DNA of 64,000 nucleotides from Marsupella aquatica (lineage: Eukaryota; Plantae; Marchantiophyta), in NCBI GenBank assembly GCA_973895155.1, contig OZ316899.1, forward strand, positions 7,629,241 to 7,693,240, written 5' to 3'. Under the pieces are notes generated by a model. That model was given only the letters and a program-made list of their open reading frames with translations. It did not search any database and was not told the DNA's origin. Of this stretch, positions 464 through 52,073 are shown in pieces. The position numbers were made by a program, and so were the translations under genes. How positions within the stretch are numbered: the first letter of the stretch is position 1; each line of letters starts with the position of its first letter.

Positions 464-499
464 CACTACTACACTATCATCCATTTTTGCAAACCCAAA

Positions 500-7814: not shown

Positions 7815-8030
7815 TGGCGGAGTAGGAATAGAATAGGGTTAGGAGTAGCTAAGTCAGGCTATTGGGACAGGCACCTGCCTTAGTTACAGCAGCACTGCCA
7901 TGCTGTCCAGCCTGCGTAGATTAGGATCTTCTAATAAGACACAGCCATTTTTTGGCCTGACAGTCAGATTAGTTAGGACCTAAGTCAGCGAATCTTCGGG
8001 CGGGAGGACACTCCGTTCCCCGGCCCTTAG

Positions 8031-8075
8031 TATTTAGTGCACCCCTCGGTAGAGGCAAGGGGGGGTTTTAGTCTC
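8031..8075 (+). promoter_or_regulatory. Putative LTR-A core promoter (TATA-like TATTTAG plus CGGTAGAGGCAAGGGGGGG)
   Basis: The same motif follows TATATAG in the different LTR at 63931-63967. Confidence 0.45.
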
Positions 8076-30410: not shown

Positions 30411-30764
30411 TGTGAGGCCAGTTTAATTAGTAAAATCAGGAGTGTACCCTAGGAAACACCTTAGTATAGTAACAAAAATAGGGAAATATAAACAATTAAG
30501 GGTGACTATGGAACCCGAGCCGAGGCCGAAAGTAAGGATGCCGGGAGAAACACAATTAGGGTTAGGGAGCGCTAAGTACCGGCGGCTACTAACGGGAAGG
30601 AAGACCAGCCAAGGGGGGGGGGGGGGTTAAGGACCGAGCGCAAGGACTGGCGGCTCATTTGCAAACACAAGCCAAGCGGACGACTATGGGAGGCCAACTG
30701 CTGTCCGCTGCTCAGGCAAGCACTCGGGGTGGAAGCAGATATCGACAATCAACTCAAGAAGGGT

Positions 30765-32600
30765 ATGAGCAACGTCAATCAAGCTACTCATTTTTGGGGA
30801 TGCCTGTTAGAACGGGCAATTGAGTACATTGGGACCTACCAGGACAAAGAATCAGAGAGAGCGGCTCGAGAACGGCAGGAGCTCGCTCGGCTGTGGGAGC
30901 TGCAGAAGTCTGCTTTCTTAGGAGGAAAACTCATTACGGCTGAATTCTTGTGGATGCCTACTGCCGACGAACTCGACAATCTTCTGTTTTGTGAGAACAA
31001 GATAGTCGGCATCCGGGAGGCCATCAACCGCTGCAACGACACACATTGGGAGTTGAAGGGTAGCACGGAGGGGTGGACGAAGGCAACCGTACTAGGAGAA
31101 ACATCCATGGCAGCCGCTATGAAGAGGAAAGGGAACAACAACGAAGAAGCCACCCCTGCAAAAAGAACGAGGTCGGCGGCACCCAAGAAACCAGCAGAGC
31201 AGGAAAGCAGGAGGCAGGCAGAAGCCGAAGAGGAGGAGGTCGACCCCGTCAATGTCGTTCCAACAAGAGATGACACCTAGAAAGGCTGGCGGCGACCCTC
31301 CCCAAGGAGGTGCTATTACACTTTGCGAGGGAAGAGGATGCATGCTTTACGCCTATGCAGACTCAGAAATACCAGGGCTTCATGGCCGGATCCGGCTTGG
31401 AAGCATTTGTAAAGTTACCATGGCTGAAGTCGAAGGTACCGGATTCAGACTTACTGGAATTCGTGGGATCATGGGAGCCCGAGACCAATTCCACAAGGGT
31501 GTATGGGAAGGATTTCTATCTCACTCCCTGGGTGATTGCCAAAGTGTTTGGCTTGCCGATGGGCAATAAGACCAAAGTAGATACCAAGAAGACCTTGCCA
31601 GACAAGGAGTTCCGGTCGTTTCCAGGGCCATCAACAAAGAATGGCTTCTTCCAAACACCTGCACCAACACGCACATAGGAGAAATGATTGATTTTTTGCG
31701 GGTGACCATGCATTGTAACTTGTCGAGGGCAAAGATCGGCAAGGCACAGGTCTATCTGGCGGAGAGGCCAGACCCAAGCCAAGACTACAACAGGTACCTC
31801 CTCACCCAACTAAAGAAGATCTTGAAGGAGGAACAGTTGGTGATCGGCATGGGAAGCGTGTCCCGACTTGGTTATCACATGTTGCTGTTGTGCCGGTATG
31901 CTCGAAGCCAGATATTTGCCCCGGTACTGCCCCTACAGGCAAGAGCACCAAAGGAGGTTCCGGAACCAAGGCCGGCAACAGAGAAACCAACCCAGCCCGA
32001 CAGTCCTACAATTGAGCAGGCGTTTAGGCCGAGGAAGGAGGACTTGCCAATGCAGCAACCAGGCATGCAAAATCTGCTGAAATTGCTGGAGAAGAAAAGG
32101 AGAACGGCAGCGGCAACGGGGCCAGTACAGAATACTGCTTCCAAGGTCGGCCTTAGCCAACTTACCAGGGAAAACCCCTTTACCGGAGCCAAGGAGAGAA
32201 GGAGGTCAAAACACGAGTCGGGAGTCCGAATGTATGTAGGAGCTTCAAGTCCCGAAGCCGAGGAGAAGCAGCCCGAGGCCCTTACTCATGATAGGGAGAA
32301 GATGAGATCAACGTGGAAGCTGGAGGAACCAGGACCCGTGATCTGTGGGGTTGTGTTCACGGGAGGACCAGGACAGCAGCGGGGGGAGCCGGTAGAACAA
32401 GCCGAGGAGGAGGCGGTAGAAGGCTACGACAATGATGACTCCGGCTACGGGTTGGACCATCATGTTCCAGGAATAAGGACCTGTGGCAGGTTCATCCCCA
32501 CTCTTCCAAGAGTAGTTTGAGGGGACCCAACCCAGTAGAGCAGCCCCCAGTCTCCCCCACTAGATGTTGCTCCCCCGAGTTTTGACGACATAAAACAGAC
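30765..32600 (+). pseudogene. LTR-B protein of B2, N-terminal half (stops and frameshift)
   Basis: Homologous to 48913-45572; interrupted at 32601. Confidence 0.85.
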
Positions 32601-33793
32601 TGTCACGTCGTCAGCCTTGGCCTTACTCCAGGCTTTGACTTAAATAGGCACACCCTTTGTCAAAATGAGGGTTTGGGCAGGGTGGGAGGCACATAATGCA
32701 CCCAACTTACGTAAAATAGCGCTAAGTGCGCCTATCATCATATACAGACACCTCCTAGGTATGGTTTGTGTTCGGCCGCCGGAACGTACCTCAATCGATA
32801 GCAGGATCGACCCTGGCTTAAGGGCTTCTAAGCCTTCGTATTGTCCACCTTCGATCCGGATTTTGATGATATGGGTGCTCAACCCGGGCTCGCAACCACG
32901 TACACGCAAGCTGCACCCCGTGCACTACTTGGGTAGTGCGTTCGGCCAAGCGTTGGCACCTATACACGAGATTCACACACATACATTCGCACAAGCATAA
33001 AATCTTGATTTACATGAAGGAAATAACGGGAAGGGATTTTACTCCATAAGAGACATATGCGTACACTTAGTTGACCCGAATGCTCTGGAGTGAACAGGTC
33101 CGAGGCCGAGGGTGTACACTACAACGGAGCCCGGTTTTGCACTTGCCCAACGAGCTTAGTCTTACACCCTTCCCTTGGTACTCTTTCACTCCCAGAGGTT
33201 GGGACTCCCCGCACATACCGCGGATGTCCAACACTGAGACTAAAAACCCCCCTGCCTCTACCGAGGGGTGCACTAAATACTAAGGGCCGAGGAACGGAGT
33301 GTCCTCCCGCCCGAAGATTCGTTGACTTAGGTCCTAACTAATCTGACTGTCAGGCCGCAAAACGGCTGTGTCTTATTAGAAGATCCTAACCTACGTAGGC
33401 TGGACAGCATGGCGGTGCTGCTCTAACTAGGGCAGGTTCCTGTCCCCATAGCCTGATTTAGCTATTCCTAACCCTATTCTATTCCTACTCCGCCGCTAAT
33501 GCCTGGCACGCTTGCCAGAGCCGTTTGAGTGGGAGCGGCCATCCCGTTGCTTACAAAGTCTGTCGTTGTCCGCCTTGAGGAGCTGGACCTGGTCTAGCAG
33601 AGATTCGTTCTCTCGCTTCGCCGCGTCCGTCTCCTCCGCTGCCTCCTGGCATGCCTCCTCCAGCTGCTGGGCTTCGCTCGTAAGCTTGCCCACCACCTCG
33701 TCCTGCTTCTCGGCTTTGGTTTGGAGCCGCGCTACTTTGGCCTGTAGCGTGGCTATCTCCGCAGTGTCCCGCTGGGCCCGTTCTTCGGCTTCC

Positions 33794-36700
33794 TGTGGTG
33801 CGTCCCATGGCTCCCTAAACCCAAGAAACCCCCCAGCTCAAGCCGATTCCCGCAGGTTTCGTGCTTGGCGAGGCCGTTTCCGCGGCTTAGCGGCATGGGA
33901 CGCTGCTAACCTTCTACTACTACTATTAACATTTTACACACATATACTGGACAGATCCTTCATCGGGTCATGAGATACGTAGCCGGCCTAATATAGGTCT
34001 TCCCCTGTCTTCCCCTGTCTTCCCCTCCGTCTTGTTAGGTATGTTTGGATTCCGCCGCCGGAATGATCCCCAATAGGCTTGGTTAAGCCGCTAAGACCTC
34101 TCTCAGCTCGACACATCCAACTCTCACTCCCCTGCTTACTTTCCTTCCTTCTGTTGATGTGGGCACTCTTCACACAAGTTAATGCGACACACAAATAGCA
34201 AAATGACTCATTCTGACTGAGTCATACCATGCACTTGCCATACAAACAGTACATCTCATACACCAGTTCTGCGAACTAAGCCGTGAGGCCAACTCTATTC
34301 AGCTCTTAGGCATGAGGAAACATGAATATACACAAGGGTCACTGTATGACTAACCGAGAGCTTCTCGTACTACTTGATCCCAGCCCGGCTGGTGCAAACT
34401 AAAAACTTGCTAAAGAAGAGGCCCTGAGCTCCCCGCTGCCCAGGTACTTATCCTGGTAGTGGATCCGCCATTCTTTGCATCGTAAGCCTAATCTACCTGA
34501 CAGTAATCTACTTGCCCGAATCTACCTATGTACAGCAAGGCAGGAGCACAAGTGTTGCTCCTACCAGTGGAACCGCAATCCCACTAAGCTAAGTGTCAGG
34601 GCCGCTCCTGGTTCTAATCCTAATCCTAAACGTGGAGATCCGCGCCCGCCCTGCCCACTCACGCCTCCTCCCTCCACGTCCGCCCTCCCTAAAAGGAACG
34701 GCGCCCTTGCACCGTCACGACACCGGTGGTGGATCCTCAATGGACGCCCCCAACACTTCCCCCTCAGCCACTGCCGTTGGCCCGCCTACTGACAGATTAC
34801 CTGCCCTTGACCGAGTCAACTCTCCCTCGGCCTGACTGGGTCCACCTTCGGCTTCAGCCTCGACACCGGCCTCGGCAATACCCACGGCTTCGGCCTCAGC
34901 CACTCCCACGGCTTCGGCCTCCCCTTCCCCTAGGGTAGTTGGATCCTTAGCCGTGACCCTGTCTGGGGTCGGTGCTGGGTCTACCTCCTTGATCACCACG
35001 GCCTGTGAAGTCGTATTACTCCTTGACCTTGAAGGTTTCCGCTTCTTCTTCGTTGGTGGCTCGGCATCTGGTCCCTTCCCCTTCCCACTTACTTCCGGCA
35101 CTGGTGCAGGTGGCGCGGCCTGTCCTTCGGCAATTACCACCCCTGGTAACTGGTTTGTCCCAACGGGAGATGGACCTGCTGCAGCTAAGCATTTAAATAC
35201 TGCGGCTTGTTTCTTCAGCCGCTCAGTTTGGTTGTCGGCCCGCCGCTGTAGGTTCTCCATCTTCCTCGTGATTTCCTCCAACTCCTCTTGGGTTTCATCC
35301 AGGTCCTTACGTGCCCCCTCCAGCTCGTTTTTGGCCTCCTCCTGGTCCCTGTGGGCTTCCTCCAATTCCTTCTTCAAGGTAGCCCTCTCCTCCTGGGTTG
35401 CTCTTAGCTCCTTGTCGAGCTCTGCAATGATGACAGACTCCATCTGATTCATCTTGGCGTAAGTCTGTTCGAGCATCTCGTCCTTCTCCCTTAGGTCGGC
35501 CTTGAAGCTGGCCGTCAGGGACGCAAGCTCCTGCTGCAGCGCCATAATCCCTTGATAGGATTTCCCTAACTCGGCCTCCTTCTGCTCAAGGGCTCCGCGG
35601 ATTTTCTCGAGCTCCCCTTTCAACGCCCATTCCTTTCTTTGGGTCTCCGCCATGGCCCGGCTGTTGGCTGTTATGTGGGCCTCCTCTGTATTCTTCAGCT
35701 CTTGCTTCCACTTCTCCCTCTCTTTGATCGTGTCGGCCAACTCTTCCTGCGTCTGAGTCAGTTTATCCTTGATATTCTGATTATCAGCCTGCGCGGTGTC
35801 CAACTGCCCCTGCATGATGTTCAGCTCATGTCGTTTAATCCGCAGTTCATCTTGGGCTTTCTTGGCCGCCCTTAGATCTTCAATCTCGGCTTCCATCCTC
35901 CTAAGCCGCCGAATGACCTCGTCCTTCTTGCTTCTCTCTAAAGCCACCGCTTCTTCTAATTGGTGCTTCTCCAACTGCTCCCTATGGAAAAAGGGTCCTA
36001 CCTCCAACTCCTCTCCAAAGATGCCGAGCGCAAGTTCCCCACACATCTCACCATACTCCATGGCTCTATTCTTAGCGTAGGTGGAGTAAGTAGAAGTGAT
36101 CGGCATCGCCCATTGTGGCCTCTGCTCCCAAGCCGTCCTGCGGATCTCTTCAATCGTGGCTAGAGGTTTGCTTCCTTTTTCGGCTAGCCGCCTGATGTCC
36201 TCCGGCCAATCTCCTCCTGGTAAATCCTTTTCCTTAGCCAGGGCGGCCTCCTCTTCCTGCTTGATTCGCTCCTGAAATTCCTGCACCGTCTGTTTTATGC
36301 CGTCGAAGCTCGGGGGGGCAACGTCTGGTGGGGGAGACTCAGGGCTACTCTGCTGGTTGGGGTCCCCTCGCACTACCCTTGGAAGTGTGGGGACAAACCG
36401 GCCACAGGTCCTTACTCCTGGAACGTGATGGTCCGACCCATAGCCGGAATTATCATGGCTGTAGTCCTCCACTGCCTCCTCTACCTCTTGGACGTCCGGC
36501 TTCTCCCTCTCCTCTTCGTCGGTAGGAGTTTCAGGCAATTCTGCCTCAGATTCGGAGCTTGAGGTTCCCACGTACATTCGAACACCTGGCTTGGATTTCG
36601 GCCTGATTCTCTCCTTGTCTCCAGCAAAGGGGTTTTCTCTTGTGAGCCGGTGTAGGCCTACCTCTGTAGTAGTGTCCTGCATTGTTGCCGTTGCCGTTGT

Positions 36701-38429
36701 TGTTGCCGATGCCGATTTCTTTTCTTTCTCCAGTAGTTTCAGCAGACTCTGCATGCCTGGTTGCTGCATCGGCAAGTCCTCCTTCCTGGGCCTAAACACC
36801 TGCTCGATCGTAGGACTAACAGGTGGTTGAGGCTTCTCAACCAACGGCCTCGGCGTTGGAGCTTCCTCGGGTGCCCTTACCTGCAGGGGAAGTACCGGGG
36901 CAAAAGTCTGACCTCTGGCATACCGGCACAACAGCGGCATGTGATAGCCAAGCCGCGACACGCTCCCCATGCCGATTACCTGCTGCTCCTCCTTTAAGAT
37001 CTTCTTCAATTGGTTGAGGAGGTACCCGTTGTAGTCCCGGCTTGGGTCTGGCCTTTCTGCCAGATAGACCTATGCCTTGCCGATCTCTGCCCTCGGCAAG
37101 TTACAATGCATGGTCACCCGCAAGAAGTCGATCATCTCTCCTATGTGCGGGTTGGTGCAGGTGTTCCGGAAGAAGCCATTCTTCGTTGATGGCCCGGGGA
37201 ACGACCGGAACTCCTTGTCAGGCAAGGTCTTCCTGGTATCAACTTTGGTCTTATTGCCTATCGGCAGGCCAAACACTTCGGCAATTACCTTGGGAGTAAG
37301 ATAGAAATCCTTCCCATATATCCTCGTGCAATTGGTCTCGGGTTCCCATGACCCCACGAATTCTAATAGGTCTGACTCCGGTACCTCCGACTTCAGCCAT
37401 GGTAATCTTACAAAGGCCTCCAAGCCGGATCCGGCCATGAAGCCTTGGTACTTCTTGGTCTGCATGGCCGTAAAGCATGCATCCTCCTCCCGTGCAAAAT
37501 GTAGTTGCACCTCCACCGGTAGGGTTGCCGCCCAGCCCTTCCAGGTGTCATCCCTGGTTGGAATGGCCTTGATGGGATCGACCTCCTCTTCTTCGGCTTC
37601 TCCCTGCCTCCTGCTCTGCTGCTCGGCTGGCTTCTTTGGTGCCGCCGATCTCGTTCTTTTTGCCGGGGTGGCTTCATCGTTGACGGCTCCCTTCCTCTTC
37701 ATCTCTGCTGCCGTGGAGGTTTCTCCTAGCACCGTTGCCTGGGTCCACCTTTCCGTGCTACCCTTTAATTCCCAGTGTATGTCGTTGCAGTTCTTGATGG
37801 CCTCTCGGATGCCGACGACGCTGTCTTTGCAAAACAGAAGATCGTCGAGTTGATTGGAAGTAGGCGTCCACAGGAACTCGTCCTTGATGAGTTCGCCTCC
37901 TAAGAAAGCCGTCTTCTGCAGCTCCCACAATCGAGCGAGCTCCTGCCGTTCTCTAGCTGCCCTTTCTGATTCCTCGTCCTCGTAAGTCTTGATGTACTCA
38001 GTTGCCCGTTCGAACAGGCATCCCCAGAAATGTGCCGCTTGATTGACGTTGCTCATACCCTCCTTAGGTTGATCGTCGGTATCTACTCTCTCCCCGAGTG
38101 CTTGCCTAAGCAGCTGACAGTAGTTGGCCTCCCGTAGTCGTCTGCCTAGTTCGTGCTCGCAAATGAGCCACTATTTCCTGCAAGCGCTCCTTACCCCTCT
38201 CCTTTGCCGGTCCTTCTTCCCGTTGATCCTTCCTAGCCGCCGACGCTTAACGCGCCCTAACCCTAATCGGGTTTTCACCCTTAGCCTTACCTCCGGCCTC
38301 GGCCCGGGTTCCATGGTTGCCCCTAATTGTTTATATTTTCCTTGTTTTGTCACTATACTAAGGTGTTCCTAGGGTGCCTTCCTGCTTTACCCACTTAACC
38401 GGCCGAGTGATTCCTGTCTAGGCATCACA
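33794..38429 (-). repeat. 3' LTR of B1 (4636 bp)
   Basis: Direct repeat at offset 10857; PPT AAGTGGGGAGCTA at 38430-38442. Confidence 0.97.
34715..38056 (-). CDS. LTR-B protein in the 3' LTR (about 1110 codons, single in-frame TAG at 37070-37072)
   Basis: The 328-aa and 764-aa ORFs share a frame; PMD/Athila-ORF-like domain GLEAFVRLPW..EFV..IYGK..LT..IAEVFGLP; ~270-aa coiled coil; KKKRK. Confidence 0.8.
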
Positions 38430-41400
38430 TAGCTCCCCACTTAATTGTGAAGCGTCCTCGCGAACAACTTCATCTTCGTCCATATAGTATTTCTTGAGGC
38501 GGTCATAATGGATGCGAACTGGATATACCTCTCCCGTAATGTTGGCCAATTGTACGGAGCCATTGGGGAACATCATGGTTACTCTAAAGGGTCCTAACCA
38601 GCGAGTGTAAAGCTTTCCTGGAAACCTACTATACCTACTGTCATAAAGTAGCACAAGATCACCGGTATGAATACTAACTACTTTTAACCTTTTATCATAC
38701 TGCTGCTTCATGATATTCTGTCTATATTCTACTCTCTCGGCTGAAATCATTCTCGCTTCCTCTAAAGCTTCTAACCTATATTCTCGCTCCTTTAGGCTCT
38801 CCTCCGCTGAGGCTCTTTCCTCAATTGTAACTTGAAATGTCGGTATCTCAAGTTGCGTGGGTACCAGGGCTTCTTGTCCAAAGGTTAAGAAGAAGGGTGT
38901 ATGACCGGTAGTGGATTTATAGGCAAGATTGTAAGCAAAAACAGCAGCAAACAATTTATCATCCCAATCGAGTTTGTTCTGAGCTACTGTCTTGTTCAAT
39001 ATCTTTCCTATAATTCCGTTTGCTCGTTCTGTCAACCCGTTTGCCTTTGGATGGTAGGGAGTAGTAGGCCTATGTTTAACTAAATACTGCTCATTTAAAC
39101 GACTAATTATATCATTCAAAAAATGGGTTCCTCTATCACTAACTAATTCTAGGGGTGCTCCATACCTGGTGAAGATCTGCTCATACATGAATCTAGCCGT
39201 AGTAATTGCATCATCCTTCGTTGTTGGTCTGGCCTCTACCCATTTAGTTGCATAATCCGTAGCCAGGATTATGTACTTGTTCCGTCGAGGGTGGGTCAGT
39301 GGTTTCAGAGGTCCAATGTAATCAATACCCCACTTCTCGAATGGTGCCAGAGGTAGAATAGGGTGCAGTGGATGCCTGGTGGACGCCCTTGGTCCTCCCG
39401 CTCGTTGACAAGGATCGCATTGTTTGATAAACTGATAGACATCTTTGTGCAAGGTGGGCCACCAGTAACCGGCATTTAATATCTTCTTAGACGTGGTTAC
39501 TGGGGCAAAATGTCCTCCGGCCTCCTCTCCATGCATGGCCCGTAGGACTCGTTTTACCTCTCTCTTTTCCAAACATCTTTGAATCGTGCCGTTGATTCCA
39601 TGCTTGTGCAGTATGCCTTTAATGCACTGATACTGTCTGACCTTCCGCACAAAGACTGCGGCTTGCTCTCGGCTTAATCCTGGCTGTAATCTGGAAGTGC
39701 TGAGAAATTGTAAAATCTCAGGGTACCATGTACCAGCTATTTCCACAACGAATAGCTCCTCGTCGGGGAATCGATCATCGATGCAATCCGTGGCAGGTTT
39801 ACCTGTGATCCTTGAAAAGAAGTCGGCATTGGCATGTAACTTTCCCGGCTTGATCCTCAGCTCATAGTCAAACTCCTGTAATAGCAAAATCCATCTTGCT
39901 ACTCTGCCTGTAAGGTCCGGCTTATTGACTAGGTACTTCAAACTTTCATGATCAGTATGAAAGATTACCTTGTACCCTAGTAAATAATGCCTAAACTTTT
40001 TACAAGAATAAATGACTCCTAATGCTTCTCTTTCCGTGGTAGAGTAGTTCCGTTCGGCATCGGCAAGCTGACGGCTTGCGAAGTATATGGGATGGTCCCT
40101 TCCTTTCTCATCCAACTGACTTAGTACTGAGCCAATACAGAAGCCCGAGACATCTACAAAAACATGAAAATCTTTGTTCCAGTCCGGTGCTATCATGACT
40201 GGGGCCTCTACTAACATCTGCTTCAATTCTACCACCGCTGTGACTCGTTCGGGTGTGGGTTCGAAGTCTGCTCCTGCCTTGAGCATATTGGTTAATGGTA
40301 AAGCTAGCTTGGCAAAATCCTTGATGAACCGGCGATAGTAACCAATGCATCCCAAGAAGGATCTTACATCCTTTATGTTCTTAGGTTGCATGATATCTAG
40401 CCATACTGCTAGCTTACCTTTGTCAATCTCAATGCCCTTCCTTGATACCTTGTGACCTAGTAGCACCCCCTCGGTTACTGCAAAAAAACATTTATCTGGG
40501 TGTAACTTGAGACCCACCTCTCTACATCTCATGAAGGTTTTTCTGAGGTATTTAGCATGTTTCGATGCCTTCCCGAATACTGCAAAGTCATCAATGAAGA
40601 TTTCCATGAACTTTCTCAAGTAATCATGGAAAATGTTCACCATTAATCGTTGGAACATAGCTGGTGCGTTGCAGAGTCCAAACGGCATACGATTGAAGAC
40701 ATAGATCCCCCATTCCGTGATGAAGGCCGTCTTGATTTGGTCTTCCTGCCGAATCCGGATTTGGTTATAACCAGAGTATCCATCCATGAATGAATATAGT
40801 TCATGACTGGCTACCATGTCTAGTACCATATCAGTAAACGGTAAAGGAAAATGGTCTTTTAATGTTGCTTCATTCAGCTTCCTGTAATCCTGACAAACCC
40901 GGATCTTGGGTTTACCATCGGGTCCAGCTTTCTTGGGAACTATCACAATTGGAGACACCCAGTCTGAATGCAGGACTGGAGTGATGAATCCAGCTTCCAC
41001 TAGTTTGTCGATTTCTGTTTTGACCAGCAGGGAATACTTCGGGTTCATCCTTCGAATTGGTTGTCGGAATGATTTGGCTCCCAGCATGAGATCAATTCGA
41101 TGTTCCCCTAGTGTTGGATCTACTCCCTTTAGATCTTGGTGACTCCATGCAAACACATCCTGAAATTCAATCAATAAGTCACTAATCTCTTTCTCGAGCT
41201 CAGGTGCTAGATTTCTCCCTAAGTTCAGTTCTCTTCCCTCTCCTAAGTCGAGCTTCCGATATTGCCGTGCTTGGATCATATTAATCTGCTTCTTCAAATT
41301 CGGGTCCAGTTCGGCTTCCAGTCTCTCTAATCTCATACCTCCATAAACTGGGATTTCGGCTGGACTAGCCGAGTCGGTCCCTTCCTTGGTGTCCATAGAT

Positions 41401-41684
41401 TGTCCCCTTACCGGTCTATTCGGTTTTGAATTAGTGGTCGGCTCCCCTTCCTGCCTTGGCTCTGGATCGTGTCTGTCCATCTCATCCACCTCTTGCTCCT
41501 GAGAGTTAGGCCGCTGTGCTCTCTCGGCTTCTAATAGGGCCTCAATTTGTTCTGCCCTCGTAATCAGCTTGTATGCCGATCCCTTGGTATTTAATTCCTT
41601 GCCGATGATCGATGGCGTTGTGAACCCTGCCGGCTCTGCCACAACGCCTGCAGAAAATTCACTGTCCCTGCTACTGCTCCCCAC
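38418..41684 (-). CDS. pol: Pol (RT, RNase H, integrase with GPF motif), in the -1 frame relative to gag
   Basis: MDGYSGYNQI, MPFGLCNAP, FIDD, DVSG, YWWP, WGIDYIGP, SDRG, NGLTER and WLGPF motifs; the ORF runs through the PPT into the LTR. Confidence 0.97.
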   Translation of the reverse strand: MGSSSRDSEFSAGVVAEPAGFTTPSIIGKELNTKGSAYKLITRAEQIEALLEAERAQRPNSQEQEVDEMDRHDPEPRQEGEPTTNSKPNRPVRGQSMDTKEGTDSASPAEIPVYGGMRLERLEAELDPNLKKQINMIQARQYRKLDLGEGRELNLGRNLAPELEKEISDLLIEFQDVFAWSHQDLKGVDPTLGEHRIDLMLGAKSFRQPIRRMNPKYSLLVKTEIDKLVEAGFITPVLHSDWVSPIVIVPKKAGPDGKPKIRVCQDYRKLNEATLKDHFPLPFTDMVLDMVASHELYSFMDGYSGYNQIRIRQEDQIKTAFITEWGIYVFNRMPFGLCNAPAMFQRLMVNIFHDYLRKFMEIFIDDFAVFGKASKHAKYLRKTFMRCREVGLKLHPDKCFFAVTEGVLLGHKVSRKGIEIDKGKLAVWLDIMQPKNIKDVRSFLGCIGYYRRFIKDFAKLALPLTNMLKAGADFEPTPERVTAVVELKQMLVEAPVMIAPDWNKDFHVFVDVSGFCIGSVLSQLDEKGRDHPIYFASRQLADAERNYSTTEREALGVIYSCKKFRHYLLGYKVIFHTDHESLKYLVNKPDLTGRVARWILLLQEFDYELRIKPGKLHANADFFSRITGKPATDCIDDRFPDEELFVVEIAGTWYPEILQFLSTSRLQPGLSREQAAVFVRKVRQYQCIKGILHKHGINGTIQRCLEKREVKRVLRAMHGEEAGGHFAPVTTSKKILNAGYWWPTLHKDVYQFIKQCDPCQRAGGPRASTRHPLHPILPLAPFEKWGIDYIGPLKPLTHPRRNKYIILATDYATKWVEARPTTKDDAITTARFMYEQIFTRYGAPLELVSDRGTHFLNDIISRLNEQYLVKHRPTTPYHPKANGLTERANGIIGKILNKTVAQNKLDWDDKLFAAVFAYNLAYKSTTGHTPFFLTFGQEALVPTQLEIPTFQVTIEERASAEESLKEREYRLEALEEARMISAERVEYRQNIMKQQYDKRLKVVSIHTGDLVLLYDSRYSRFPGKLYTRWLGPFRVTMMFPNGSVQLANITGEVYPVRIHYDRLKKYYMDEDEVVREDASQLSGELCDA

Positions 41685-44581
41685 TTAGCCGTTTCATCCA
41701 ATTGGTCTACATCCTTTACTTCCTCCGGAATTGCAGCTAAAAAGGTGGATTCTATTGTAAAGCAGTCCTCGACCTCTGCGTCTTCTTCTTCCAAGTCACC
41801 TTCCATTGGTTCCTGCCATAATCCGCTGGGGGGTACCTCAGGTCCAAAGACACCTTCTTCGGTTAGGTTAGTGAGGCATTCTAACCAACGTACTTCATCG
41901 GCTGACTCCAGTCCACTGTCGTACCCATCTACTTCCCTTATGCTTTTCCTACGGTCATCCTTAGTGTCCCAGGATACTGTGATAGAGGGGGTCCCGAAAG
42001 TGAACTGCTTTTTACCCCAATCTTCTATTACCTCGGCTAGGTACAGCCATGGCCTACCAATCAATAGCCGGAATGACGTAGGGTTTACCGGCTTCATTAC
42101 TACATAGTTAATGCTAAAGAAGATACCTCCTATCTCTGTCTTGATGCCGGTTAACACTCCCGTAGGAATGACCTGATATCCATTGGCCATGTTCAACACT
42201 CTTCCAGTCATCTCCGGTGTTAGACCCCACCCTTTTGCTGTTGAATCAATCATAATACATACCCCTGATCCTCCATCGATGGGTACCCGTAGTAATAATT
42301 CTCCTTGAATCATTAATGGTAATGCTGGGGCTCCTTGATCTTCTTCTATCATTAGTACGTCGGATCTGGTTGCTACCTTGGGTAATCTCGGCTTGCCGAG
42401 AATAGCCTTCCTTAATTGCTTCCGGAAGTACGGGCTATTTTTCAATAGTTGACCTACTGTTGCCGAGACTCTAGATTCTAGTACATCTTTAGCCAGGTCA
42501 TAGGGAACAATCGGCTTCTCCTCTGGTGGTGTTTCCTTGGATTCGGCCAGTTTTGCCACGCTAGTCTCCACAGCTGTTGGGTCTTCCGAAGCAAACAATG
42601 CTTTTGCTCGTTTTACATCTTTGGCAATGGCTTCGGTATTCTCCAGGGTTTCTAATTCTCTTAGTTGTTCCTTAACACTAGCCGTAATAGAGGGGTAGAA
42701 CAACTTAGGATGATCTCGATTGAAGTCGCTATCTTGTGAAGGATTGGGTTCATTGGTGGGCTCATGGCTTACCTGTATTGCCGGAGCCCTCCCTTCTCCT
42801 TCTGTTGATGTTGACGAAGAGTCGATCCTTTCCTCCGTAACCTTCCCTTTATTTTTGGCCAGCCCATCCCACCTTTCCTTCCTTCTGGTAGATCGAGTAG
42901 AGACCCGGTAGCAATCATGATCTAAATCCTCCTCTGAGAAGGTTGATAGGGCTTCGGCCTCATCATCAGATGGTACGAACTCTGCCTCGGCATCCTCTTG
43001 CCATCCTAGTTCGATGTGGTTGATTTGAACTCCTCCGGGGGTAGTACTTGGCGGTAAGATCTTGATCGGCAAAAGCTTATGATTTGCGGCCAGGCCTGCC
43101 AACCAAGTAGGACATTGCCCTAGCATATGACCTTCCTGTCGGCATCCCATACATAGCTGAGCTGGTTGTCCATCACCCTGTTTGCGTGCATTCGGGCATT
43201 CTCTAGCAAAATGGCCAGGTTGACCACAATTATAGCACGCCGCAAATCTTTGCACATTCGGCCTAGGAGGTACTGACGGGTTCTGAATAATCCGAGGATA
43301 CATCTCTCCTGGATTGTTCCTTAACCCTGACCACAGAGATGCAGGTCTGTTGGATAGGTCTCGTGCTCCAATCTCACTGATGCCGAAAACACTATCAGCG
43401 GCATCTCCTAAAAAGTACTCTACTTCTCCCTGACATGGTCTGATCTCGGCCACATGCCGAACATGATTAGTATTAAGCTTAGGACACGCATCTTTATGGT
43501 GTCCGGTTTTATAACATAAGGCACACCATACAGAGCTATCCTCCTGTACTACCTTCTTCTTTGGTTTTACCTCTGCAATGATAGCTTTAAGTTGCTCGGT
43601 AAGGGCTACGATGTTATCTGGTGGCTTAGCCTCCATCTTGACTTTCATCTTCCCTCTCCTTCTGCCCTTCCTTTTCCTAGTTTCTTCTTCTTCAGAACTA
43701 GAAGATGACTCACTCTTGCTACTCCCACTATTCGAGCTTGACTTATCACTTCTAGACTTCTTGGAATGTTTCTTCTTCTTATCTTTTTTCTTATGGGGTG
43801 ATCCCTCCTCTGATGAGGAACTCTCAGACTTAAGCTGTTTCTTCCGGCTTGTGATATCTGCATTAATGTATAATTGAATATCCTTAATTGCTTCGGCTAA
43901 AGTCTCCGGGTTCTCCTTCCTAATTGCAAAACTCATCTTCTGTGGCAAAGCATTCACCAACCATTGAAGTTGCATACCTTCAGATGCATTGGTCTTTGTA
44001 CGTCTTACCAGTTTCTGAAAGCGTTGCAAGAACTTCCTGAAGGATTTATTCTCCTTGAACCGAAGTTGTCCCAACTTCAGCACTGCTAGTTCTGAAGTTC
44101 CAATGGGTCGAAACTCCTTAACAAAGAGTGTTTTGAAGATATCCCAGATGGCTTGATCTTCCACATCTAATGCTCTGTACCAAGGCCTAGCCTCACCCTT
44201 GAACAGGCCGGGAAGAATCTGCATCTTGATGGCCGATTCTACATTTGCTGCAGCGGTTCCCTCGAAATCATCCAACCATTCGTCCGGATCCTCATCTCCT
44301 CTCCCATGAAATGCCTTGTAATGTATGCGCGACCGCTGGCTCAATCTGGTCCCTGACCTCTCGTCTGGCCGTGCCTCTGGTTCCCTCATGTCGGTTGTAG
44401 ACTCACTTCTCCTTACCGACTCTTCTTCTGGTATGTCTTCTTCGATGCCACTTCCAGTTTCGGAGCTACCAGCTCTTTCTGCCCCTCTCAGTCGCTGTGT
44501 ATCATGCCACCCGGCGAGCTGCTGCAGTCGAGCTCTCTCCCGTTGAATCACTCTTTCTTCCCTCGGCGTAAGGTCAGTCAT
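41591..44581 (-). CDS. gag: Gag (capsid, three CCHC knuckles) plus aspartic protease
   Basis: FHGRGDEDPDEWL; CALCYKTGHHKDAC, CYNCGQPGHFAREC and CMGCRQEGHMLGQC; IDGGSG and LLIGRPWL. Confidence 0.95.
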   Translation of the reverse strand: MTDLTPREERVIQRERARLQQLAGWHDTQRLRGAERAGSSETGSGIEEDIPEEESVRRSESTTDMREPEARPDERSGTRLSQRSRIHYKAFHGRGDEDPDEWLDDFEGTAAANVESAIKMQILPGLFKGEARPWYRALDVEDQAIWDIFKTLFVKEFRPIGTSELAVLKLGQLRFKENKSFRKFLQRFQKLVRRTKTNASEGMQLQWLVNALPQKMSFAIRKENPETLAEAIKDIQLYINADITSRKKQLKSESSSSEEGSPHKKKDKKKKHSKKSRSDKSSSNSGSSKSESSSSSEEEETRKRKGRRRGKMKVKMEAKPPDNIVALTEQLKAIIAEVKPKKKVVQEDSSVWCALCYKTGHHKDACPKLNTNHVRHVAEIRPCQGEVEYFLGDAADSVFGISEIGARDLSNRPASLWSGLRNNPGEMYPRIIQNPSVPPRPNVQRFAACYNCGQPGHFARECPNARKQGDGQPAQLCMGCRQEGHMLGQCPTWLAGLAANHKLLPIKILPPSTTPGGVQINHIELGWQEDAEAEFVPSDDEAEALSTFSEEDLDHDCYRVSTRSTRRKERWDGLAKNKGKVTEERIDSSSTSTEGEGRAPAIQVSHEPTNEPNPSQDSDFNRDHPKLFYPSITASVKEQLRELETLENTEAIAKDVKRAKALFASEDPTAVETSVAKLAESKETPPEEKPIVPYDLAKDVLESRVSATVGQLLKNSPYFRKQLRKAILGKPRLPKVATRSDVLMIEEDQGAPALPLMIQGELLLRVPIDGGSGVCIMIDSTAKGWGLTPEMTGRVLNMANGYQVIPTGVLTGIKTEIGGIFFSINYVVMKPVNPTSFRLLIGRPWLYLAEVIEDWGKKQFTFGTPSITVSWDTKDDRRKSIREVDGYDSGLESADEVRWLECLTNLTEEGVFGPEVPPSGLWQEPMEGDLEEEDAEVEDCFTIESTFLAAIPEEVKDVDQLDETAKWGAVAGTVNFLQALWQSRQGSQRHRSSARN
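41614..41660 (-). promoter_or_regulatory. Putative -1 ribosomal frameshift signal
   Basis: G_AAT_TTT, 5-nt spacer, then a 9-bp stem GGCGTTGTG/CACAACGCC inside the gag/pol overlap; conserved in B2. Confidence 0.75.
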
Positions 44582-44627
44582 TACCTACGCTTCCGTTCTA
44601 ACTTCATATCTCACGGCTTAAGAAATG

Positions 44628-44646
44628 CCCCCTCCATCTAGCGCCA
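44628..44646 (-). promoter_or_regulatory. PBS TGGCGCTAGATGGAGGGGG (probably tRNA-Asn)
   Basis: 4 nt from the 5' LTR; complementary, with one mismatch, to the plant tRNA-Asn 3' end as recalled. Confidence 0.7.
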
Positions 44647-44650
44647 AAAA

Positions 44651-47600
44651 TGTGGTGCGTCCCATGGCTCCCTAAACCCAAGAAACCCCCCAGCTCAAGC
44701 CGATTCCCGCAGGTTTCGTGCTTGGCGAGGCCGTTTCCGCGGCTTAGCGGCATGGGACGCTGCTAACCTTCTACTACTACTATTAACATTTTACACACAT
44801 ATACTGGACAGATCCTTCATCGGGTCATGAGATACGTAGCCGGCCTAATATAGGTCTTCCCCTGTCTTCCCCTGTCTTCCCCTCCGTCTTGTTAGGTATG
44901 TTTGGATTCCGCCGCCGGAATGATCCCCAATAGGCTTGGTTAAGCCGCTAAGACCTCTCTCAGCTCGACACATCCAACTCTCACTCCCCTGCTTACTTTC
45001 CTTCCTTCTGTTGATGTGGGCACTCTTCACACAAGTTAATGCGACACACAAATAGCAAAATGACTCATTCTGACTGAGTCATACCATGCACTTGCCATAC
45101 AAACAGTACATCTCATACACCAGTTCTGCGAACTAAGCCGTGAGGCCAACTCTATTCAGCTCTTAGGCATGAGGAAACATGAATATACACAAGGGTCACT
45201 GTATGACTAACCGAGAGCTTCTCGTACTACTTGATCCCAGCCCGGCTGGTGCAAACTAAAAACTTGCTAAAGAAGAGGCCCTGAGCTCCCCGCTGCCCAG
45301 GTACTTATCCTGGTAGTGGATCCGCCATTCTTTGCATCGTAAGCCTAATCTACCTGACAGTAATCTACTTGCCCGAATCTACCTATGTACAGCAAGGCAG
45401 GAGCACAAGTGTTGCTCCTACCAGTGGAACCGCAATCCCACTAAGCTAAGTGTCAGGGCCGCTCCTGGTTCTAATCCTAATCCTAAACGTGGAGATCCGC
45501 GCCCGCCCTGCCCACTCACGCCTCCTCCCTCCACGTCCGCCCTCCCTAAAAGGAACGGCGCCCTTGCACCGTCACGACACCGGTGGTGGATCCTCAATGG
45601 ACGCCCCCAACACTTCCCCCTCAGCCACTGCCGTTGGCCCGCCTACTGACAGATTACCTGCCCTTGACCGAGTCAACTCTCCCTCGGCCTGACTGGGTCC
45701 ACCTTCGGCTTCAGCCTCGACACCGGCCTCGGCAATACCCACGGCTTCGGCCTCAGCCACTCCCACGGCTTCGGCCTCCCCTTCCCCTAGGGTAGTTGGA
45801 TCCTTAGCCGTGACCCTGTCTGGGGTCGGTGCTGGGTCTACCTCCTTGATCACCACGGCCTGTGAAGTCGTATTACTCCTTGACCTTGAAGGTTTCCGCT
45901 TCTTCTTCGTTGGTGGCTCGGCATCTGGTCCCTTCCCCTTCCCACTTACTTCCGGCACTGGTGCAGGTGGCGCGGCCTGTCCTTCGGCAATTACCACCCC
46001 TGGTAACTGGTTTGTCCCAACGGGAGATGGACCTGCTGCAGCTAAGCATTTAAATACTGCGGCTTGTTTCTTCAGCCGCTCAGTTTGGTTGTCGGCCCGC
46101 CGCTGTAGGTTCTCCATCTTCCTCGTGATTTCCTCCAACTCCTCTTGGGTTTCATCCAGGTCCTTACGTGCCCCCTCCAGCTCGTTTTTGGCCTCCTCCT
46201 GGTCCCTGTGGGCTTCCTCCAATTCCTTCTTCAAGGTAGCCCTCTCCTCCTGGGTTGCTCTTAGCTCCTTGTCGAGCTCTGCAATGATGACAGACTCCAT
46301 CTGATTCATCTTGGCGTAAGTCTGTTCGAGCATCTCGTCCTTCTCCCTTAGGTCGGCCTTGAAGCTGGCCGTCAGGGACGCAAGCTCCTGCTGCAGCGCC
46401 ATAATCCCTTGATAGGATTTCCCTAACTCGGCCTCCTTCTGCTCAAGGGCTCCGCGGATTTTCTCGAGCTCCCCTTTCAACGCCCATTCCTTTCTTTGGG
46501 TCTCCGCCATGGCCCGGCTGTTGGCTGTTATGTGGGCCTCCTCTGTATTCTTCAGCTCTTGCTTCCACTTCTCCCTCTCTTTGATCGTGTCGGCCAACTC
46601 TTCCTGCGTCTGAGTCAGTTTATCCTTGATATTCTGATTATCAGCCTGCGCGGTGTCCAACTGCCCCTGCATGATGTTCAGCTCATGTCGTTTAATCCGC
46701 AGTTCATCTTGGGCTTTCTTGGCCGCCCTTAGATCTTCAATCTCGGCTTCCATCCTCCTAAGCCGCCGAATGACCTCGTCCTTCTTGCTTCTCTCTAAAG
46801 CCACCGCTTCTTCTAATTGGTGCTTCTCCAACTGCTCCCTATGGAAAAAGGGTCCTACCTCCAACTCCTCTCCAAAGATGCCGAGCGCAAGTTCCCCACA
46901 CATCTCACCATACTCCATGGCTCTATTCTTAGCGTAGGTGGAGTAAGTAGAAGTGATCGGCATCGCCCATCGTGGCCTCTGCTCCCAAGCCGTCCTGCGG
47001 ATCTCTTCAATCGTGGCTAGAGGTTTGCTTCCTTTTTCGGCTAGCCGCCTGATGTCCTCCGGCCAATCTCCTCCTGGTAAATCCTTTTCCTTAGCCAGGG
47101 CGGCCTCCTCTTCCTGCTTGATTCGCTCCTGAAATTCCTGCACCGTCTGTTTTATGCCGTCGAAGCTCGGGGGGGCAACGTCTGGTGGGGGAGACTCAGG
47201 GCTACTCTGCTGGTTGGGGTCCCCTCGCACTACCCTTGGAAGTGTGGGGACAAACCGGCCACAGGTCCTTACTCCTGGAACGTGATGGTCCGACCCATAG
47301 CCGGAATTATCATGGCTGCAGTCCTCCACTGCCTCCTCTACCTCTTGGACGTCCGGCTTCTCCCTCTCCTCTTCGTCGGTAGGAGCTTCAGGCAATTCTG
47401 CCTCAGATTCGGAGCTTGAGGTTCCCACGTACATTTGAACACCTGGCTTGGATTTCGGCCTGATTCTCTCCTTGTCTCCAGCAAAGGGGTTTTCTCTTGT
47501 GAGCCGGTGTAGGCCTACCTCTGTAGTAGTGTCCTGCATTGTTGCCGTTGCCGTTGTTGTTGCCGATGCCGATTTCTTTTCTTTCTCCAGTAGTTTCAGT

Positions 47601-49286
47601 AGACTCTGCATGCCTGGTTGCTGCATCGGCAAGTCCTCCTTCCTGGGCCTAAACACCTGCTCGATCGTAGGACTAACAGGTGGTTGAGGCTTCTCAACCA
47701 ACGGCCTCGGCGTTGGAGCTTCCTCGGGTGCCCTTACCTGCAGGGGAAGTACCGGGGCAAAAGTCTGACCTCTGGCATACCGGCACAACAGCGGCATGTG
47801 ATAGCCAAGCCGCGACACGCTCCCCATGCCGATTACCTGCTGCTCCTCCTTTAAGATCTTCTTCAATTGGTTGAGGAGGTACCCGTTGTAGTCCCGGCTT
47901 GGGTCTGGCCTTTCTGCCAGATAGACCTATGCCTTGCCGATCTCTGCCCTCGGCAAGTTACAATGCATGGTCACCCGCAAGAAGTCGATCATCTCTCCTA
48001 TGTGCGGGTTGGTGCAGGTGTTCCGGAAGAAGCCATTCTTCGTTGATGGCCCGGGGAACGACCGGAACTCCTTGTCAGGCAAGGTCTTCCTGGTATCAAC
48101 TTTGGTCTTATTGCCTATCGGCAGGCCAAACACTTCGGCAATTACCTTGGGAGTAAGATAGAAATCCTTCCCATATATCCTCGTGCAATTGGTCTCGGGT
48201 TCCCATGACCCCACGAATTCTAATAGGTCTGACTCCGGTACCTCCGACTTCAGCCATGGTAATCTTACAAAGGCCTCCAAGCCGGATCCGGCCATGAAGC
48301 CTTGGTACTTCTTGGTCTGCATGGCCGTAAAGCATGCATCCTCCTCCCGTGCAAAATGTAGTTGCACCTCCACCGGTAGGGTTGCCGCCCAGCCCTTCCA
48401 GGTGTCATCCCTGGTTGGAATGGCCTTGATGGGATCGACCTCCTCTTCTTCGGCTTCTCCCTGCCTCCTGCTCTGCTGCTCGGCTGGCTTCTTTGGTGCC
48501 GCCGATCTCGTTCTTTTTGCCGGGGTGGCTTCATCGTTGACGGCTCCCTTCCTCTTCATCTCTGCTGCCGTGGAGGTTTCTCCTAGCACCGTTGCCTGGG
48601 TCCACCTTTCCGTGCTACCCTTTAATTCCCAGTGTATGTCGTTGCAGTTCTTGATGGCCTCTCGGATGCCGACGACGCTGTCTTTGCAAAACAGAAGATC
48701 GTCGAGTTGATTGGAAGTAGGCGTCCACAGGAACTCGTCCTTGATGAGTTCGCCTCCTAAGAAAGCCGTCTTCTGCAGCTCCCACAATCGAGCGAGCTCC
48801 TGCCGTTCTCTAGCTGCCCTTTCTGATTCCTCGTCCTCGTAAGTCTTGATGTACTCAGTTGCCCGTTCGAACAGGCATCCCCAGAAATGTGCCGCTTGAT
48901 TGACGTTGCTCATACCCTCCTTAGGTTGATCGTCGGTATCTACTCTCTCCCCGAGTGCTTGCCTAAGCAGCTGACAGTAGTTGGCCTCCCGTAGTCGTCT
49001 GCCTAGTTCGTGCTCGCAAATGAGCCACTATTTCCTGCAAGCGCTCCTTACCCCTCTCCTTTGCCGGTCCTTCTTCCCGTTGATCCTTCCTAGCCGCCGA
49101 CGCTTAACGCGCCCTAACCCTAATCGGGTTTTCACCCTTAGCCTTACCTCCGGCCTCGGCCCGGGTTCCATGGTTGCCCCTAATTGTTTATATTTTCCTT
49201 GTTTTGTCACTATACTAAGGTGTTCCTAGGGTGCCTTCCTGCTTTACCCACTTAACCGGCCGAGTGATTCCTGTCTAGGCATCACA
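44651..49286 (-). repeat. 5' LTR of B1 (4636 bp)
   Basis: Direct repeat of 33794-38429. Confidence 0.97.
45572..48913 (-). CDS. LTR-B protein in the 5' LTR (single in-frame TAG at 47927-47929)
   Basis: Four amino-acid differences from the 3' LTR copy. Confidence 0.8.
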
Positions 49287-49291
49287 CTTCC

Positions 49292-51617
49292 TCCAGGTCT
49301 TTCTACCAGATGACAGTTTGATTCTTCAAACTGTCAATCTGGTTCTGGAGTCGTGCAATCTCGGCCTCGTTCCCAACTTTGGCCTGTTCGGCTAGGGCGG
49401 TAAGGGCGTGCGCCTTTGCTAACAACTCATCGGCGGCTGCAATTTTGGGTCATAGTTGTAGAAGCTCAACCTCTTGAGCCGCAACTTCGTTCTTTAAGTA
49501 TATGGACTCCACCCGGTACCGCTCTATCCTCTGAAGGGCCTCTGACTGGGCCCGACCTGCCTTTACTGCGGCAACCAACTCCTGATTGAAGAAACAGGCT
49601 ACCTTCCGGACCATGAACTCCCCGGTATCCCGGGAAATTTGATGAGAGAAATCTCCCAGAAGCCCATTCAGAAATGTACCCGGTATGAAGAGTTCCGGGT
49701 GGTCCAGGTTCTGCCTGTCTGGATTTGGGCACGGGCAGACGTCAACATGCACGGGGGCCGGGGCAGTGACATCCAGCCCTGGAGACGTAGTGTTGGAAGG
49801 GGTTGGAGTGTCCTCCTCCAGCAATGTCCGGTCCTCCGGAATAGCCACCGATGGGTCTTCGGGACACCCGGGTTCGAGTAAGACCTCCTCTGTCCCGATT
49901 TCTGTACTTGGCCCGGCCTGGTTGATCGCATCTACGGTTGCGATTACCGACCCATCTGGTACCTCATCGGCCACGGCTACAACTACTTGTGGAGGTGGGG
50001 TGGGTGAAGCTGCGTGGCTGCTGGACTTCGGGCCTCGGGTTGGGGCCGTCTCTCCAAGGCCGGGAAAACCCACCTAGCTGGGACCAGCTTTGTTACGTTG
50101 ACACGGGGAAGGGTTTGTCGATCAAACTGAGCGTACCACTCGAGAATGATCTTGATGTGGCTAGCGAAATACGCCTTCCCGTCAATGTATAGCGTCTTTC
50201 TTCGCCGCTCCATCTCTTCATGGAATTTCTTAGCGAAGTACGACGCCCACTTCCTAGGTCGATAGTTCTCGACCTGGATAACCTGGGCAGCGGAGATCTC
50301 CCCCCGGGGTTCCATCATGTGGAGGGCGTACCTTTGGAACTCCAGTCGCTCAGCTATCTTGGGGATGAGGCAGGTCCTCATCACAAACCCGTTGTCCACT
50401 GATCCCTCGGAGGGAAAACTCGAGGATTGGTACTTGGCTCCCTTGCCCCTGGGAGCCCGTGATTTGACTCGGTGGTCATCTTTGGGTAACCCAAAGATCA
50501 TCTTGAGCCGTTCTTCCATGAGGGACATATTCCTTCCCCGCAGCCGAGTATGTTGATGTGCGTCGTCATAATTCTTGACGAATTCTGTCATGTCCTCCCC
50601 ATAGTACCTGCAAGTGTTCCAGGGGAGAGAGGCGAGGTGCTCGAATCCCTGAGTTTCCAGGTACACCACATGTTTGGGATGGAGGATGTTTTTATGCACG
50701 TTTTCCCCCATGCGGTGCATTGTCACCTTGGCCATTGGTAACCCGGATGCAGCAGCGGGTTCCTTCCTCTTCTTCCCCCGTGACTGGCTCCGGGAGGGTG
50801 ACACCTCCCCATCCTCTCGATCGGGCATAGATAGTGCTACCGCCATTAGTATTGGGCCCGGGGCGGCCACGGTCACCGTGTTGTCTGCTGGAGCCGCTCC
50901 TTGGATCCGGACATGGGGAGGGGACGATGTAGTGTCGGCCCCCTGAGTGTTCGCTCCTCTGGGCCGCCTGAGCAAGGGCGGGGTAGCCTCGTCTTTGTTG
51001 CTAAGGTCCACAGCGTTGATGACGGAGCGTACTTGTACTGGCGGGGCGATCGGCGGTGGGGGTTGGCTAGGCTGAGCCTGAGCCTGAGTCTGCGTTGGCG
51101 CGGGTATGGGTATGGGGTCGATTGGGCCGGCACCGGCGGTTGAGGGTCTAGTTCCCATGAAGCTCTGCAGGTGCTGGTAGAAGTTCTCTGAAGCAAGTGT
51201 AGACGGCCTTGTCGAACGGGTAGTGCTGGACTTGCTGTTGATGATAGCCCGAACCTGAGCAGGGATGTGGTCGAAGTGATGTCGTTGCAAGTCGATCGTA
51301 CCCGGGATATTAAAGACCTCGTCCGGAAGCCGAAGCAATGCTTCCCAGAAACCGATATATTTGTCTCCGTTGAAGAAGTACCCTGATACCTCTGCTGGTC
51401 AGTAAAGCTTGCTCTGAGACAGGTAGTCAAAGTTAAGGATATAGTGGTGTTGTCCTGCTAGGCGGATGGCTCTCTCATACTTGCGTTCGATTTCGTATCG
51501 GTGCGGGTTGGCGTGTTCAATGAGTCGGCCAACTGTCTTCCGGTAGATAGGAACTGCGTCCAGAATCGAATGGCCAAACTGGAGAGGATCGTGTGCGACA
51601 TTCAGAGGAGATAGCAA
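49292..51617 (-). pseudogene. LTR-A protein of copy 2 (C-terminal end at 33496-33793)
   Basis: Homologous to 5158-7814 with different lesions. Confidence 0.85.
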
Positions 51618-52073
51618 TGGCGACTAAGAGAAAACAAGAGAGTTGAGGTCAAAGCTGGCGCGTGGACTGATGGACTGGTGTACTACAAAGGGTCGGCTCC
51701 CCTTTTATACCTTGAGGGCTCGTCGATCACCCGACGTCTCCTCGTTGCTTATAGGCTGAACCATTCACGCTTGTAGTGTATCGGCCACTCCGCCGGTCTG
51801 AGTCAGCGCGTGTCAGTGGCCGCTTCCCTAAGTTTGTTATATGGACCCGAGGGAGGGGCCCCTCCACGCTCGCAACCCGGGCGTGCGAATGGCGACACGC
51901 CGCCAGTCCGAACATGAATTCCCCTTATTGACTAATGATTTCCTACTCATAATGGTTACCTAAATACTGTTGTTATGCTAATAATAGCGGCCTAAGATAC
52001 CCCTAACGCGCGTGCTAAGCACGGTTTAGACCAAATTACTCATTACTCGCAGTACCGGCAGCGTCACACAGAT

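Follow-up and report, generated by a model that had tools for sequence, protein, structure and literature searches.

What does a gene of more than a thousand codons do inside the long terminal repeats (LTRs) of a plant retrotransposon? The question is raised by an element at positions 33794-49286 (minus strand) of a 64,000-nucleotide stretch of DNA from the liverwort Marsupella aquatica (GenBank assembly GCA_973895155.1, contig OZ316899.1, positions 7,629,241 to 7,693,240 of the forward strand; hereafter designated the window). Two direct repeats (33794-38429 and 44651-49286) are the LTRs of this element and make up 59.8% of its 15,493 bp, each containing a sense-strand frame that fills 72% of the LTR. 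Comparisons among copies indicate that this accessory frame is a real gene under purifying selection, lying wholly inside the LTR, and its core domain is predicted to adopt the fold of the VANC and plant mobile domain (PMD) proteins. That the gene encodes a DNA-binding protein of this fold, likely protecting the family from host silencing, is a proposal to which we give about even credence.

The gene within the terminal repeats

The focal element is a young Athila-like Ty3/gypsy retrotransposon insertion, the parts of which are listed below.

44651..49286, minus strand: 5' LTR, 4,636 bp, beginning with TG and ending with CA
33794..38429, minus strand: 3' LTR, 4,636 bp, with 5 differences from the 5' LTR
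45572..48913, minus strand: accessory gene in the 5' LTR, 1,113 codons, ATG at 48913, stop at 45572, premature stop at codon 329 (47927-47929)
34715..38056, minus strand: accessory gene in the 3' LTR, identical premature stop (37070-37072)
47759..48403, minus strand: conserved core domain, codons about 171-385, ratio of nonsynonymous to synonymous substitution rates (dN/dS) 0.10-0.11
46019..46813, minus strand: long acidic/basic region read as a coiled coil, codons about 701-965, dN/dS 0.20-0.25
49187..49192, minus strand: TATA-like box (TATAAA), upstream of the gene at LTR position 95, kept in 3 of 3 aligned copies of the family
44651..45571, minus strand: non-coding 3' part of the LTR, U-rich in part, 9% diverged from older copies
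33789..33793, plus strand: target-site duplication (TSD) CTTCC, left
49287..49291, plus strand: TSD CTTCC, right
44628..44650, minus strand: primer-binding site (PBS) after the 5' LTR, PBS-like TTTTTGGCGCTAGA
41591..44581, minus strand: gag, open, with Retrotrans_gag and zf-CCHC (Pfam) and a protease-like motif read from the translation
38418..41684, minus strand: pol, open, with reverse transcriptase (RT), RNase H and integrase (Pfam)
38430..38442, minus strand: polypurine tract (PPT) directly behind integrase, overlapping the end of pol

These features bear out the earlier note on this DNA, which had described 4636-bp LTRs making up about 60% of a 15.5-kb element with TSD, PBS and PPT. The internal region holds gag and pol only, in the order gag, protease, RT, RNase H (pol residues 501-605) and integrase (707-879); the pol frame shares 94 bases with gag, and its final 12 bases fall inside the 3' LTR. 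The two LTRs differ by C/T transitions alone, and all 5 of these lie within 630 of the 4,636 bases (46971-47600 and 36114-36743; chance probability ~0.0015), and 4 of them are in CG or CHG context, with local methylation or a conversion tract as possible causes.

The family of the focal element (hereafter family B) is further represented in the window by two older LTRs, and a second family with a homologous gene (family C) by two solo LTRs. The earlier note had described neither family C nor the predicted fold and the DNA word reported below.

57729..61988, plus strand: family-B solo LTR with a decayed gene (5 stops and frameshifts), TSD CATGG
30411..32600, plus strand: first part of the 5' LTR of an older family-B element
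52069..54561, plus strand: second part of the same 5' LTR, followed by a PBS of the same type and gag
4694..8712, plus strand: family-C solo LTR, TSD TTGTT, with the homologous gene (open at 5694-7814, frameshift upstream)
32601..52068, minus strand: the other family-C solo LTR, in two pieces (32601-33793 and 49292-52068) on either side of the focal element

Both older family-B LTRs align with the focal one across the whole frame at ~82% DNA identity, the split one retaining the whole gene with 4 stops and frameshifts. Relative to the older copies, dN/dS of the family-B gene (Nei-Gojobori) was 0.26 (95% bootstrap, 0.21-0.32), 0.17 and 0.30, compared with 0.16 for gag, 0.12 for pol and 0.38 for the family-C gene; by part, the tail of the protein reached 0.49-0.57, and the core domain and the coiled coil had the low values listed above. 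By the comparison of copies that the earlier note had proposed, the frame is thus under selection. That note had also described a sense frame of about 3.3 kb in each LTR and a gene kept in all four family-B LTRs, and the frame was indeed found with its full 1,113 codons and all four LTRs contain the gene; both focal frames are, however, cut at codon 329, and not one of the four genes is unbroken. The premature stop common to the focal LTRs falls within the conserved domain. In 4 of 4 public runs from 4 studies (one of them possibly the source of the window itself, and run X1 being covered to 57%), another letter stands at this site in 96-100% of the read depth, and the stop is thus private to the focal copy or to a small branch.

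The family-C gene is 24-25% identical to the family-B gene over ~205 core residues (E 2e-13 and 2e-14), and no significant similarity was found between the LTR DNA of the two families. The family-C LTRs are ~4.0 kb long, both solo with TSDs of their own, and their edges are sharp in the read depth of public runs. More distant relatives were found among five metagenome loci fetched through the pol of a sister clade, two of which (L001 and L002; pol about 63% identical) reach past pol. In both, pol is followed by a purine tract, a TG mirroring the 5' LTR end, 510-660 non-coding bases and then an open reading frame (ORF) that aligns to the core-domain profile (hhalign probability 60.6, E 8e-5); both contigs end within this ORF and cover the LTR in part. 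The layout with the gene in the LTR therefore looks lineage-wide, given the family-C homologue and the likely homologue just inside the 3' LTR of these two distant elements. The earlier note had proposed that the accessory gene was absorbed into the LTR. A real gene in a real LTR stands, but not its internal origin: the analysis turned up no relative whose gene precedes the PPT, and in both informative relatives the gene lies behind it. A move from the internal region would be suggested only by analogy with the Athila layout (PMC7264820; here and below, citations refer to the available parts of the sources).

The benefit of the LTR position is that the gene survives in solo LTRs. Three of the six gene-bearing LTRs in the window are solo, with TSDs, in agreement with the proposal that the gene outlasts LTR-LTR recombination, and LTR read depth was ~4 times the internal depth in 2 runs, a ratio that hints at many solo LTRs and gives no copy number. 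The companion idea, that each insertion delivers two copies, fared less well: the gene is in both focal LTRs, but its value as insurance is weakened by the same null allele in both, and a second copy cannot protect for longer than one generation, because reverse transcription makes both LTRs alike. The family-B LTR was present at more than half of its words in 6 runs (X1-X6) bearing four organism labels and coming from four studies, and family-B LTR contigs were >99% alike in runs X3 and X6.

Outside the core domain, the accessory protein consists of low-complexity sequence, the long coiled-coil-like stretch, for which Pfam gives weak matches to coiled-coil families only, and a basic patch (KKKRK) at residue 1003. 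An envelope-like role was rejected, as no transmembrane stretch was found (best hydropathy, 0.98). The non-coding 3' part of the LTR is constrained as well, since its 9% divergence compares with a silent-site dS of 0.40-0.48. We also considered, and found unsupported, a relic PPT just past the gene stop, which would mark an older, shorter LTR: a purine-rich stretch occurs there in 3 of 3 family-B copies and none follows the family-C gene, and the depth of the LTR end was about equal to that of the gene (ratios, 0.94 and 1.19).

Predicted fold and family-specific word

No domain of the accessory protein exceeded the Pfam cut-off, and neither DUF1985 nor a PMD signature matched or was among the 25 families listed out of 57. 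The core domain was modeled with AlphaFold2, as the earlier note had advised, from the homologous stretches 58590-59225 (family B) and 6060-6719 (family C), both models having a predicted local distance difference test score (pLDDT) of 92. Compared with 48,161 solved chains, the family-B model matched DNA-bound VANC21, an anti-silencing protein of an Arabidopsis transposon, with Z 7.5 (root-mean-square deviation (rmsd) 4.0, 195 of 212 residues), this being the only chain with Z of at least 2, and the family-C model matched it with Z 8.0 (rmsd 4.4, 205 of 220 residues; next best Z 2.5). The match spans the whole domain and stands alone among the solved chains. With the family-C model, Foldseek placed DNA-bound VANC21 at the top (probability 0.91, TM score 0.57, E 0.13; next probability 0.02), and with the family-B model VANC21 was not among the best 50 of 157 matches. 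The two models are not independent, because most of the alignment is common to both. Searching the solved structures by sequence yielded no significant match, and none was obtained at E 0.001 from a viral structure library. The core domain is thus predicted, on these models, to have a VANC21-like (VANC/PMD) fold of the DNA-binding type. VANC and PMD share one fold, and VANC21 contains a coiled coil (PMC13547354; 10.1101/2024.09.27.615353); PMD is also carried by angiosperm Gypsy elements (PMC5418596).

VANC proteins bind short, family-specific motifs, and these accumulate in the element that encodes the protein (PMC5735166). Word enrichment in the present elements was assessed against 300 synonymous-codon shuffles, in which amino-acid and codon use were held, 6-mer results being those among the words listed. 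In family B, CGGCA was observed 27 times in the LTR gene against 8.7 expected, and GCCGA 19 times in gag against 6.6 expected (family-wise p 0.003 for each). The distant L001 and L002 elements use TCCGGA rather than a GCCG-type word: each of the 5 coding and 3 non-coding regions tested had an excess of CCGGA (z 5-21), with 80 observed against 35 expected in L001 pol, 100 against 33 in L002 pol and, in the L001 LTR end, 63 against 6.8. Neither lineage was enriched in the word of the other. In L001 (1-1393) and the whole of L002, CCGG occurs about 20 times per kb; the load is strongest in the L001 LTR end, at 30 per kb, and a tandem duplication of 219 bases lies there too.

GCCG accounts for 34% of the CGs of family B and for 6-9% of those of copia and CACTA elements in the same window. 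Moreover, silent C/G positions were kept between family-B copies at 84 of 93 GCCG sites against 85 of 141 other CG sites (p 2e-7), with 32 of 56 at other CCG sites and a non-CG baseline of 174 of 215. In neither family B nor family C was any 6-9-mer significantly over-represented within the non-coding parts of the LTR.

Possible roles of the protein

If the protein protects its family from silencing, each LTR would act as a promoter-gene cassette behind the TATA-like box; the protein would bind the word of its own family along the element through the VANC-like domain and oligomerize through the coiled coil, and, once bound, would lower methylation or other repressive marks along the element. 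It would act in trans, a copy with a broken gene being mobile while intact LTRs elsewhere supply the protein. The focal element, with the domain cut in both LTRs, gag and pol open, and a recent insertion, fits such action in trans, or else a parent whose other LTR was whole. The broader proposal, that a bryophyte lineage carries a word-recognizing, VANC-type anti-silencing cassette in its LTRs, solo LTRs included, and that the fold was present in retrotransposons long before the eudicot VANDALs, is more tentative, and we incline somewhat against it.

Several results weigh against protection by a word-binding protein. All six gene copies within the window are broken, and the dN/dS values were obtained by a Nei-Gojobori calculation without transition correction, which lowers them, while post-insertion decay of the old copies raises them. 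The Z values of 7.5-8, at 9-11% identity, are moderate and the Foldseek E value for the family-C model is 0.13; furthermore, a shared fold shows no function, because host PMD proteins act both in silencing and against it (PMC5418596). As to the word, its excess in family-B pol was weaker and non-significant (13 against 7.5 expected), it did not reach significance in either non-coding part of the family-B LTR, the kind of place where VANC motifs sit, and family C carries the gene, yet in none of its 3 regions did a word pass correction. One of the 6 coding controls was also positive (copia RT, window 22639-24723; GGTAA 13 against 3.6 expected). Between L001 and L002, TCCG was kept at 48 of 79 sites, no better than other CCG (31 of 54), the silent sites being near saturation. 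Finally, the words have 4-6 bases, fewer than VANC motifs with their 8-9.

A DNA-binding regulator of the same fold might instead activate or organize its own promoter, as a retroviral trans-activator does, leaving silencing marks untouched, the word being its binding site or unrelated. This is a reading that we consider unlikely, though not negligible; it would also account for the fold and the selection data, it suits the constrained non-coding LTR end, and a regulatory DNA-binding role has been proposed for the TRP28 proteins of Retand (PMC11963269). The spread of the word across coding regions and the escape of its CGs from decay nevertheless fit lowered methylation better than a promoter site. 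Rather less probable is a protein that works off DNA, whether in assembling particles, in targeting integration or in tethering to chromatin by way of its coiled coil, with the word reflecting a methylation or mutation context bias. About 265 codons of conserved coiled coil and the lack of a word in family C are consistent with such a role, as are the models of Athila-domain and VANC proteins as coiled-coil oligomers (PMC13547354), but the GCCG preference is not a genome-wide bias, given its share in the copia and CACTA elements, and the single structural match is a DNA-bound protein. It is hardly credible that the repeats arose by segmental duplication or that the frame is a functionless captured passenger. 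The broken state of all window copies would suit this reading; it is refuted by the element boundaries, the TSDs of solo LTRs, the sharp family-C depth edges, the selection and the same gene position in distant relatives. For the focal repeats, a segmental duplication is ruled out by the TG...CA ends, TSD, PBS, PPT and solo copies with their own TSDs, and for the gene, a captured passenger is ruled out by dN/dS well below 1 together with its position in distant relatives.

Sequence-specific anti-silencing is established for the Arabidopsis VANDAL DNA transposons; the present element offers a candidate protein with a predicted fold, together with a candidate target word that varies from one lineage to the other. 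It also bears on the origin of PMD/VANC-fold proteins, in Gypsy elements or in host genes, a question that PMC5418596 did not settle. Solo LTRs, if they express the gene, would be trans-acting regulators rather than inert scars, and the main route by which the host deletes such elements would leave a counter-defense gene behind.

Lineage and surroundings of the element

The core-domain profile found 59 proteins among 1.84 billion; 20 were looked up, and 9 of the 9 with a species name were from the liverwort Calypogeia fissa. The focal RT-RNase H region shares 68-69% identity with Calypogeia proteins, 53-59% with Riccia proteins and 37-51% with angiosperm Athila-type polyproteins. The relatives that bear names thus indicate a liverwort as the likely host. 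In a midpoint-rooted tree of this region, built from the 98 of 122 sequences that covered 340 residues and containing neither REXdb references nor an outgroup, the focal element grouped with Calypogeia elements (support, 0.999) in a bryophyte-type clade apart from the angiosperm Athila-type sequences. A metagenome scan with the core-domain profile confirmed 0 of 148 stretches, and word-seeded searches among proteins of 611-1946 and 1303-3720 residues found nothing of the LTR protein. The window contains no tRNA genes; the focal PBS may be of the tRNA-Asn type and those of L001 and L002 of the tRNA-Asp type.

The REXdb table lists Athila as non-chromovirus OTA Ty3/gypsy elements with a PBS for tRNA-Asp or tRNA-Asn (PMC6317226), a paper whose main text does not name Marchantia. 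Like Athila, the focal element is large, has a 5-bp TSD and a sense extra ORF downstream of pol, and gave no Pfam match to an extra RNase H or a chromodomain in pol. It differs from Athila, in which the extra ORF lies in the internal region between pol and the 3' LTR, in that the PPT overlaps the end of pol and the ORF is placed behind it, in the LTR. Similarity of the protein to Transposase_32 (PF20167) is below threshold (2 of 62 aligned members match; best E 0.006), and comparison with one Vicia sequence gave hhalign probabilities of 0.4 and 2.2. Phygy and Selgy (4-bp TSD, short, no extra ORF; PMC6317226) are excluded by the 5-bp TSD, the 15.5-kb length and the extra ORF, and Tat (TatI-III, Ogre and Retand) by a pol without an extra RNase H, the distinction used in PMC6317226.

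VANC21 of VANDAL21 (PDB 9lnj, 9lnk) resembles the accessory protein in its predicted fold over about 200 residues, its coiled coil and an enriched family-specific word. Its carrier, however, is a Mutator-like DNA transposon of a kind called dicot-specific (PMC13547354), not a retrotransposon LTR, and VANC motifs are 8-9 bases long in non-coding tandem repeats (PMC5735166), whereas the word found here is shorter, largely coding and only a candidate binding site. PMD-A of angiosperm Gypsy elements (Ogre), which like host MAIN/MAIL1 is one of the PMD proteins, is likewise a Gypsy-borne accessory protein of the fold common to PMD and VANC (PMC5418596; 10.1101/2024.09.27.615353), but its description is from angiosperms, in which extra ORFs outside the polyprotein encode it; the focal protein is of bryophyte type and LTR-borne, and no match to PMD-A was seen at the sequence level. 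Literature searches with narrow phrases found neither a plant retrotransposon with a gene inside its LTR nor a VANC-like retrotransposon protein, and an earlier description is possible. No such LTR gene is reported in the available parts of PMC12885004, PMC11728184, PMC12844716, PMC12859917, PMC13317346 and PMC7466625. LTRs of this length are already known from Ogre (1.9-6.5 kb; PMC6431247; see also PMC6317226), so that length alone is not new, and Ogre differs in having its extra ORFs in an internal region of 11-13 kb and an extra RNase H. Extra ORFs are common in plant retrotransposons, and the statement of the earlier note that they lie in the internal region agrees with PMC7264820, PMC11963269 and PMC6431247; their function is still open (PMC7264820, PMC11963269).

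The neighborhood of the focal element (30411-63031) is nested at three levels, the family-C solo LTR lying in the older family-B 5' LTR and the focal element in that solo LTR, and the family-B solo LTR is inserted in the pol of the older family-B element. Protein genes within terminal repeats are also already known from vertebrate retroviruses, in which mouse mammary tumor virus (MMTV) sag, human immunodeficiency virus (HIV) nef and foamy-virus accessory genes lie in or overlap U3; these resemble the focal gene in lying within a terminal repeat, but are far shorter and encode unrelated proteins. Elsewhere in the window, two Ty1/copia elements, both decayed, and a transposase region of CACTA type (Transposase_21, DUF4216) lie at 8876-13367, 14500-21000 and 22600-26800. 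At 1-4690, TCGCAA occurs 28 times against 1.4 expected, in clusters that we presume to be like the subterminal repeats of CACTA-type elements. Degenerate tandem repeats (63045-63511) lie directly past the truncated end of the older family-B element.

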